A stretch of DNA of 64,000 bases from a bacterium. GTDB taxonomy: Bacteria > UBA8248. The notes under the pieces are model-generated. The model was not told the origin of the DNA, ran no database searches, and worked only from the letters and a program-made list of their open reading frames with translations. Positions 18,781 to 19,608 of this stretch are shown in pieces; within the stretch, counting starts at the first letter, position 1, and each line of letters begins with the position of its first letter. The stretch lies in assembly GCA_965204535.1 (NCBI GenBank), contig CBDBEV010000001.1:128001-192000 (forward strand), given 5' to 3'. The position numbers were made by a program, and so were the translations under genes.

Positions 18781-19608
18781 ATGAGCAAACAAGTTTCCTT
18801 AAAAGATGCCGCATCACTCATCGAAAATGGAGACGCGATCAGTCCCGGCGGAACCTTATTGCACAGAACACCCGCCGCCCTCATCCGCGAAATTGCGCGC
18901 GCGGGTCTTCGGGACCTCACGCTCATCAAGCCGTCTCCCGGTTACGACGCCGATCTCCTTTGCGCCGCAGGCGCCGTGAAGAAAATCATCAGCGGCATTG
19001 TTACATTCGAGGCGGAATTCGGATTGGCGCCTCACTATCGAAAGGCGATAGAGAAAGGAATGGCCGGCCTCACCGAGCATGCCTGAGCCAGCGTGCTTGC
19101 TGGGCTGCGGGCCGCAGCCTACGGCGTTCCCTTCCAGCCCATTCGCGGATTCGATGGGAGTGATATCCCCGAACAAAGCGGCATCTTCACGATTGAAGAC
19201 CCCTACACGAATGAGGAACTCTATGCGATTCCCGCCCTCAAGCCGGACTGGGCGTTGATCCACGTCCAAAAATCAGACCCTCAGGGAAACGCGCAAATCC
19301 TGGGCAATCAGCAATTCGACGTTGAAATGACGCGCGCGGCGCAAAAAGGGGTCATTCTCACGACCGAGAAAATCGTAGACTCCGAAGAAATCGCAGCGGA
19401 ACCGGAGAGAACCACCATCCCGAGTTTTCTCGTCAAAGCAGTCGTGGAAACGCCGGGCGGCGCGTCTCCTTGTAGCTGCCATCCATTTTACGGGGTCGAC
19501 AAAACAGAAATGAGGCGCTACATGACCTTGACCCAAAGCCAGGACGGGCTTCGGGAATATCTGGCGAGTACCGACGAAACACACACACAAGACGCGGTGA
19601 CGAAATAA
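18781..19608 (+). CDS. Family I CoA-transferase-fold alpha subunit (GctA/IpdA-like) with in-frame UGA at codon 102; candidate selenoprotein
   Basis: ORFs 18781-19086 and 19093-19608 share a frame and are separated only by TGA(19084-86)+GCC AGC; homology is continuous (AAAYGVPFQP, PALKPDWALIHVQKSDPQGN, GGASPCSC). Confidence 0.8.
19087..19125 (+). promoter_or_regulatory. Putative bacterial SECIS element
   Basis: Stem TGGGCTGCG (19101-09)/CGCAGCCTA (19113-21); G-first apical loop with 23 nt between it and the UGA. Confidence 0.65.

Follow-up and report, generated by a model that had tools for sequence, protein, structure and literature searches.

The Alpha-Beta Gene Pair

The window, the whole 64,000-nucleotide stretch of bacterial DNA that was analysed, carries two adjacent genes for the alpha and beta subunits of an enzyme with a CoA-transferase fold (Table 1). 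In the list of open reading frames the alpha gene appears as pieces of 101 and 171 amino acids in one frame, which a preliminary description had read as a single gene, free of other lesions, for a GctA/IpdA-like subunit of 275 residues. This reading holds, as the TGA at codon 102 is the only internal stop, the joined frame ends in TAA at the expected length, and the protein matches Pfam PF01144 above the cut-off. The structure model of the alpha subunit (pLDDT 95.8) aligns in Foldseek with IpdA, GctA and AibA at TM scores of 0.86-0.90. Against NCBIfam 20.0 the protein matched no selenoprotein model and only two weak CoA-transferase models, both below cut-off. The expectation that annotation pipelines would split the gene was borne out: its halves are deposited as two proteins in the public protein collection, where related C-terminal halves from Tectomicrobia are annotated 'hypothetical protein'.

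Table 1. Positions of the gene pair, its recoding features, its neighbours and its paralogues in the host genome.
Feature	Position	Strand	Remarks
AhpD/CMD-family gene	18034..18588	-	PF02627; CxxC motif; divergent; candidate reductant partner (predicted)
Alpha-subunit gene, Gct/IpdA/AibA-type CoA-transferase fold	18781..19608	+	275 codons + TAA with codon 102 read through
In-frame TGA, putative selenocysteine codon	19084..19086	+	codon 102; opens helix 102-114 of the model; at the IpdA Glu105 position
SECIS-type hairpin	19101..19121	+	conserved 7-bp stem 19103-19109/19113-19119; loop GGC 19110-19112; 23 nt past TGA
Beta-subunit gene, 250 aa	19611..20363	+	2 nt downstream of alpha; PF01144; Val62 (19794-19796) at the GctB catalytic Glu position
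RraA-like/HMG aldolase gene	20449..21090	+	PF03737; after beta
Paralogous pairs, Cys form and His form	C2:682880-684456 and C2:1211351-1212992	+	

The TGA is seen outside this assembly too. Runs X4 and X5, which belong to two other studies and are recorded as sponge metagenomes, gave contigs that span the site and carry the same TGA, and none of their differences falls within the TGA or the 7-bp stem behind it. This comparison leaves out runs X6 and X7, whose differences are unlisted, as well as X1, an identical sequence that may be the source of the window DNA. A metatranscriptome contig (X18; 199 nt, depth 2.8) stops 3 nt past the TGA and is uninformative on expression, and a scan for promoters and terminators across 18400-21300 found nothing above shuffled sequences.

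The Probable Selenocysteine Codon and Its Conservation

The host genome encodes the machinery for selenocysteine (Sec), with selA (572.8 bits), selB (389), selD (331.5) and tRNA-Sec (75.9) all scoring above curated cut-offs, and its selD itself contains an in-frame TGA. TGA is also the commonest stop of this genome, ending 604 of 1202 long coding-like frames; the earlier observation that UGA is a normal stop elsewhere, as in hflX, is therefore sound, and the code has not been reassigned. Genetic codes 4 and 25 were rejected on this ground and on the lack of Trp at column 102 in homologs. A genome-wide scan for UGA followed by a hairpin returned 57 candidates, many of them false; three look-alikes lying upstream of a repeated helix-turn-helix-like gene were rejected. 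The genome nevertheless appears rich in selenoproteins, examples among the scan candidates being C1:83117+, C1:1581395-, C2:819171+, C2:299935-, C1:354864+, C2:1196284-, C2:1753639- and C1:445173+. By their motifs, the candidates look like AhpD-like CxxU, UGSC-like, glutaredoxin-like UxxC and OsmC-like UxxT proteins.

Among 41 genomes searched, 22 orthologous loci were found (the host genome, 20 of the 22 other members of its genus and one member of another genus; 65-100% identity), and all 22 have TGA at codon 102 with no other stop. No orthologue was found in the two remaining members of the genus (G015 and G017). In an alignment of 120 protein homologs, column 102 holds Cys in 84, Glu in 22, a gap in eight and six single other residues, but never Trp; the best 90 homologs include all 84 Cys, the other six beginning after this column.

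A degenerate TGA-bearing pattern, scanned on GTDB, recovered at least 118 loci. All 118 matches listed are alpha genes with the TGA in frame at column 102, at 35-95% identity to the alpha subunit of the window, some of them from the same genomes as the relatives with orthologous loci. At least 118 GTDB loci of the alpha family are cut in two by annotation pipelines. Judged by record titles, the loci come from about a dozen phyla: roughly half are from Betaproteobacteria, and the other titled groups are Bacillota, Chloroflexota, Myxococcota, Deferrimicrobiota, Armatimonadota, Methylomirabilota, Spirochaetota, Thermodesulfobacteriota, Tectomicrobia, Nitrospinota and Actinomycetota. Records 91-94% identical in alpha are titled Nitrospinota or Nitrospinaceae. 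All 118 listed titles are those of metagenome bins, and a few taxon labels look doubtful. In 50 genomes picked from these loci for taxonomic spread, selB was detected in 46, and three of the other four have selA or tRNA-Sec, so that 49 of the 50 possess some Sec gene; the exception, G069 (2.3 Mb), yielded neither selB, selA nor tRNA-Sec. For comparison, the text available from BSepDB counts 16,621 species that use Sec in a set of more than 64,000 genomes (PMC13326102).

Sec and Cys forms are intermixed in phylogenetic trees of the family. FastTree, with 198 rows, gives 12 changes between the two, at least nine of them forced by well-supported branches, and IQ-TREE, with 75 rows and column 102 dropped, gives 10 changes with at least six forced; neither tree fixes the direction of change. 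Spread over many phyla, the alpha family has switched between Sec and Cys repeatedly. Both forms occur together in most genomes of the genus, and in one (G023, locus L046) they lie side by side. The host genome likewise has an intact Cys-form alpha-beta paralogue, 47% identical and with Ile at the catalytic column of its beta subunit, as well as a His-form paralogue whose beta subunit retains Glu at that column.

The hairpin behind the TGA had been described as a 9-bp stem with a G-initiated loop 23 nt after the UGA. Loop and spacing stand, and nine pairs are present, but one of them is G-U and conservation is confined to the inner seven; of 52 related sequences, 19 and 40 retain the two outer pairs. 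The structure lies within the published SECIS consensus (loop of 3-9 nt, stem of 4-16 bp, G in the first two loop positions, 16-37 nt from the UGA, at most -7.5 kcal/mol; PMC13188914), with a 3-nt loop, a stem of 7-9 bp and an energy in isolation of -11.3 to -13.9 kcal/mol, the last value being that of the 21-mer alone. Single-sequence folding ranks it no better than chance against shuffles (z -0.33 to +0.28), its stem pairs have probabilities of 0.01-0.05 in a 63-nt context, and a similar hairpin follows 1184 of the 130165 TGA triplets of the genome (0.9%). It is comparison between genomes, rather than the folding of one sequence, that lifts the hairpin above chance.

The 20-nt core of the hairpin, read by eye, is identical in all 22 orthologous loci, and nearby synonymous sites vary. 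A Cys-codon version of the search pattern supplied 120 metagenome loci for comparison. Once identical 45-mers are removed, 92 of 107 TGA codons are followed by a perfect Watson-Crick stem of 6 bp or more, versus two of 113 Cys codons, the two sets being drawn from different collections and kin within them not being independent. Of the 92 stem-bearing loci, 52 belong to one betaproteobacterial type with a GT loop and a register shifted by one codon. Such betaproteobacterial loci (e.g., L058, L060 and L063) encode the same peptide with a different hairpin register, one codon shorter, which suggests a separate origin or a remodelling of the SECIS. For the register of the window, covariation was scored on 41 distinct rows (the window and 40 loci, with duplicates and 57 GT-loop loci left out): 99.0% of 287 cells are paired, double changes occur in five of the seven pairs (38 cells), none of 500 shuffles attains the score for pairing or that for covariation, and pairing in slid controls is 30-46%. 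The 7-bp stem thus covaries across the aligned sequences.

Taken with the Sec genes of the host and the interchange of Cys and TGA, this covariation supports the original reading of codon 102 as selenocysteine, and with all four Sec genes present, Cys or TGA at the column in homologs and no sense-codon relative among the orthologues searched, Sec recoding is almost certainly the correct interpretation.

The Putative Active Site

In the structure model, residue 102 is the first residue of a helix spanning residues 102-114. Sequence alignment places it, with no gaps nearby, opposite Gln in GctA, Gly in AibA, and Glu (6co6) or Ala (6coj) in IpdA. Since 6coj is titled 'IpdAB E105A COCHEA-CoA complex', the Glu/Ala pair identifies the Sec102 position as IpdA Glu105. 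Crowe and co-workers reportedly assigned Glu105 in 2018 as both the catalytic base and the acyl carrier of IpdAB. No CxxU or UxxC motif surrounds Sec102.

The partner subunit has lost the residue on which CoA-transferases of this type rely. The beta gene is present in 22 of 22 relative loci and in 72 of 80 Sec loci with flanks. Its Val62 aligns with the catalytic Glu of GctB, given as Glu54 in the available text of PMC5380842, and with Cys56 of AibB. Across 128 family beta subunits this column holds Val in 74, Ile in 38, Leu in seven and other residues in nine, and Glu in none; in beta subunits paired with His-type alphas it is Glu in six of six. The absence of Glu from all 128, together with Cys or Sec in alpha, suggests that in this family an alpha Cys/Sec has taken the place of the beta Glu. 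A Glu does occur one residue before the catalytic column in this beta (Glu61), in 12 of the 128 and in the homologs of JS614 and NBB4 (Py2 has Ala), and on the alignment this adjacent residue could act in place of the catalytic Glu. Sec102, or Cys elsewhere in the family, is nonetheless very probably the catalytic nucleophile at the alpha-beta active site, as judged from these sequence comparisons. Association of alpha with beta is to be expected from the solved homologs.

Relation to Known Enzymes and Selenoproteins

Three characterised systems share the fold. IpdAB, a COCHEA-CoA ring-opening hydrolase (6co6, 6co9, 6coj and 6con), resembles the pair in its alpha subunit (TM 0.89-0.90, 32% identity), and IpdB also lacks the transferase Glu, having Gly57 there according to excerpts of PMC5380842. 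It differs in carrying Glu105 in place of Sec/Cys, in an IpdB that is only weakly similar to this beta (E 1.4e-5), and in its gene context, there being no steroid catabolic genes among the scanned neighbours of the pair (AhpD-like, RraA-like, UxaA-like and ferredoxin). GctAB (1poi), a class I CoA-transferase, gives the best sequence match to alpha (E 4e-33; TM 0.90) and shares the two-gene layout, whereas its catalytic GctB Glu54 is replaced by Val here and its GctA has Gln at the Sec column. AibA/AibB, the 3-methylglutaconyl-CoA decarboxylase (5mzw and related entries), is the best solved match of the beta subunit (E 4e-34 to 4e-33). AibAB likewise uses the CoA-transferase fold for other chemistry, by way of an acyl-CoA enolate (PMC7756340, in the portion available), but its Cys56 sits on the beta subunit at the Glu54 position, where this beta has Val, and AibA has Gly at the Sec column.

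Closer to the pair in its catalytic residue is the 'CoA-transferase' of the ethene, vinyl chloride and coenzyme M gene clusters of Nocardioides JS614, Mycolicibacterium NBB4 and Xanthobacter Py2, with Cys at the Sec column, an alpha subunit 40-44% identical and no Glu at the aligned beta column. These proteins have Cys rather than Sec and form a separate branch, and their function is presumed in print (PMC8727900, accessible text). As these alphas lie outside the main clade of the alpha subunit studied here at that level of identity, the substrates may differ.

The recoding signal itself has precedents: in SaoC a UGA is followed by a short 7-bp stem with a G-first loop (GGU), and in the selD of the host genome a short stem with loop GGA follows the TGA; the window hairpin is alike. 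The preliminary description did not recognise the CoA-transferase fold among the classical selenoprotein families, and the 2026 selenoprotein catalogue agrees. Among the 119 families in its Table 1 there is no PF01144 family. Text searches of the main texts of deep-Sep and BSepDB and of a preprint by Haft and Gwadz turned up no CoA-transferase selenoprotein either. Among the papers listed by literature searches, none links Sec to the alpha family. Within the catalogue and main texts searched, the recoding mechanism is known, and the CoA-transferase fold and the chemistry proposed for it are new.

Genomic Context

In the lineage of the window the pair has stable neighbours. The AhpD-like gene accompanies the pair in 20 of 22 relative loci and at identities as low as 66% (L097, L100 and L107), and is absent from the other Sec lineages and from all 73 Cys loci. 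Conservation of the RraA-like gene is limited to this lineage: it occurs in 21 of 22 relative loci and in 12 of 80 Sec loci, and in none of the 73 Cys loci. Upstream of alpha, positions 16176-17992 (+) hold genes for a 2Fe-2S ferredoxin and for a UxaA-like dehydratase that is split into a SAF domain and a catalytic part, the UxaA-like gene being retained in 19 of 22 relative loci. A DDE transposase (DUF772, DDE_Tnp_1_6; 13547-15031, +) lies between M16 peptidase pieces at 15203-16012 (-) and 11442-13532 (-) and appears to interrupt one M16 peptidase gene.

Across the family, Sec pairs are mostly a two-gene unit in varied surroundings, and, Betaproteobacteria and this lineage apart, most of them are surrounded by unrelated housekeeping genes. 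Betaproteobacterial Sec loci lie near TctC and acyl-CoA genes, and a cysteine-dioxygenase-like gene is near nine Sec loci. At L065 and L078 the Sec pair directly follows glycine/betaine reductase genes (GrdB, GrdC-like) and precedes acyl-CoA synthetase and TctA genes.

The Cys forms have more telling surroundings in two cases. In JS614, NBB4 and Py2 the pair belongs to the ethene/coenzyme M cluster, whose other genes include SDR dehydrogenases, an ATP-grasp acyl-CoA synthetase and a pyridine nucleotide-disulfide reductase. In Acetoanaerobium noterae it belongs to an operon (L296:2934-17696) with a class II aldolase, an aldehyde dehydrogenase, microcompartment shells, PduL, a solute-binding-fold protein, a disulfide reductase, a sugar ABC transporter, an MtnK-like gene and MtnA, which is likely a methylthioribose fermentation pathway; among the papers listed by a literature search, none describes it. 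The Cys forms of these two clusters occupy separate tree branches. Among metagenome loci a disulfide reductase adjoins 18 of 73 Cys forms, but all 18 fall in one branch and are therefore not independent, and the gene is within the flanks of none of 80 Sec loci and none of 22 relative loci. The host genome has no close copy of it, its best TIGR03385 match scoring 186 bits versus 456 for a copy neighbouring a pair. Other Cys forms (L182 and L207) lie among acyl-CoA metabolism genes such as methylmalonyl-CoA mutase.

Proposed Chemistry

The methylthioribose route, or DHAP shunt, yields methylthioacetaldehyde. The ethene/coenzyme M route yields 2-ketoethyl-CoM, according to the accessible part of PMC8727900, and few steps of the ethene and vinyl chloride pathways are confirmed (PMC11507031, likewise in the portion available). 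Both products have the form R-S-CH2-CHO, both clusters can make a CoA ester (as predicted from their genes) and both carry a disulfide reductase. The recurrence of this combination in two unrelated pathways points to reductive cleavage of R-S-CH2-CO-SCoA. By this analogy the alpha-beta enzyme may cleave the C-S bond of (alkylthio)acetyl-CoA reductively, with no CoA transfer, a tentative proposal whose prospects are close to evenly balanced but a little short of that.

Thiol-dependent thioether cleavage has models in other folds. In 2-ketopropyl-CoM reductase/carboxylase, omega-class glutathione lyases and glycine reductase, Cys or Sec takes S or Se off a carbon adjacent to a carbonyl, and the products are an enolate and a mixed disulfide. 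The chemistry proposed for the alpha-beta pair is alike and the folds are unrelated, which makes the comparison a functional analogy only. That the CoA-transferase fold can form an acyl-CoA enolate is seen in AibAB (PMC7756340, in the portion available). Also in favour of the proposal are the cysteine-dioxygenase-like gene near nine Sec loci and the glycine reductase genes beside two.

In the proposed mechanism, SelB would bind the hairpin and insert Sec at codon 102, and Sec102, or Cys in other species, would act as nucleophile at the alpha-beta active site. With R-S-CH2-CO-SCoA held in the CoA site, the selenolate would attack the thioether. Attack at sulfur would set the acetyl-CoA enolate free; attack at carbon would make R-SH the first product to leave. 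The oxidised enzyme would then be freed by CoA-SH or by a thiol of a protein, giving acetyl-CoA and R-SH overall. The resulting disulfide would be recycled by CoA-disulfide reductase in clostridia and ethene oxidisers, and in this lineage perhaps by the neighbouring AhpD-like CxxC protein.

Alternative Explanations

The premise of this mechanism fails if codon 102 is not Sec at all, the TGA being instead a real stop (in a pseudogene, in a split gene re-initiating at GTG 19093, or through assembly error) or being read as Trp or Cys. An in-frame GTG does follow two codons past the TGA, the hairpin is not favoured in single-sequence folding, one of the 50 genomes tested (G069) lacks a detectable selB, selA and tRNA-Sec, and the host has its intact Cys-form paralogue. 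Yet a decaying or misassembled gene sits poorly with the same codon at the same column in all 118 matches listed, down to 35% identity, with a hairpin that is linked to the TGA and covaries, with the six to nine or more Sec/Cys switches that well-supported branches force, and with the agreement of independent contigs; nor is Trp found at the column, in a genome where TGA is the commonest stop. Non-Sec decoding is accordingly very improbable.

For the chemistry, the cleavage proposal itself meets several objections. Its link to the reductase comes from Cys forms alone and has no counterpart at the Sec and relative loci or as a close copy in the host, and 18 of the reductase loci amount to one branch. 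The Glu adjoining the catalytic column in this beta, JS614 and NBB4 could substitute for the missing residue, L182 and L207 lie in acyl-CoA metabolism, and most Sec pairs outside Betaproteobacteria and this lineage have housekeeping surroundings. For the ethene-cluster pair, moreover, the literature presumes malonate CoA transfer (PMC8727900, accessible text). Such a role would suit a route in which Sec102 attacks the thioester carbonyl to form an acyl-selenoester, making the enzyme a CoA-transferase, an acyl-CoA hydrolase or a thiolase-like C-C hydrolase in which the alpha Sec/Cys replaces the beta Glu and no redox step occurs. The location of Sec102 at the position of IpdA Glu105, with its reported role as base and acyl carrier, fits this route, as do betaproteobacterial and other loci with acyl-CoA synthetase, family III CoA-transferase, crotonase, acyl-CoA dehydrogenase and citrate-lyase-like genes; but it leaves the disulfide reductase of two unrelated clusters unexplained, and a 2026 review holds that most uncharacterised selenoproteins are likely redox proteins. 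An acyl-selenoester is possible though rather doubtful. The Sec/Cys might also serve as a general acid/base, or in persulfide or thiol-disulfide exchange on CoA, with no thioether cleaved. Here the disulfide reductase neighbours would fit CoA-persulfide chemistry too, and AibAB, whose AibB is the best solved match of the beta, is a decarboxylase of the same fold with an active-site Cys, AibB Cys56, which has been proposed to act as a general acid/base in the decarboxylation; that residue, however, is on the other subunit and replaceable without loss of activity (PMC7756340, in the portion available), and Cys/Sec102 is invariant in close homologs. A selenol, with a pKa of 5.2, would presumably be a poor proton donor at neutral pH. 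Acid/base or exchange chemistry of this kind is unlikely.

Reductive thioether cleavage, extended to the whole family, would make the pair a new Sec/Cys enzyme class on the CoA-transferase scaffold, reductively removing thiols from (alkylthio)acetyl-CoA, and place it among the more widespread bacterial selenoproteins that catalogues lack. In aerobic assimilation of ethene and vinyl chloride, the Cys forms would then account for the unexplained step that releases coenzyme M, and in microcompartment-based methylthioribose fermentation for a step that releases methanethiol and forms acetyl-CoA. This wider picture is conceivable, with the balance lying somewhat against it.

Implications

With this family the selenoproteome would gain a fold that annotation labels as a non-redox transferase. 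All 118 listed loci come from metagenome bins, which could explain why surveys based on isolates overlooked it. With two hairpin registers on one peptide and repeated Sec/Cys switches, the family is a good case for studying the origin of coding-region SECIS elements. Sec also appears to mark the catalytic residue of a large Cys family that is labelled 'glutaconate CoA-transferase' and lacks the residue needed for that activity. As Cys forms occur in cultured bacteria, the function of the family is testable, and so are the as yet unverified steps that complete the degradation of ethene and vinyl chloride.
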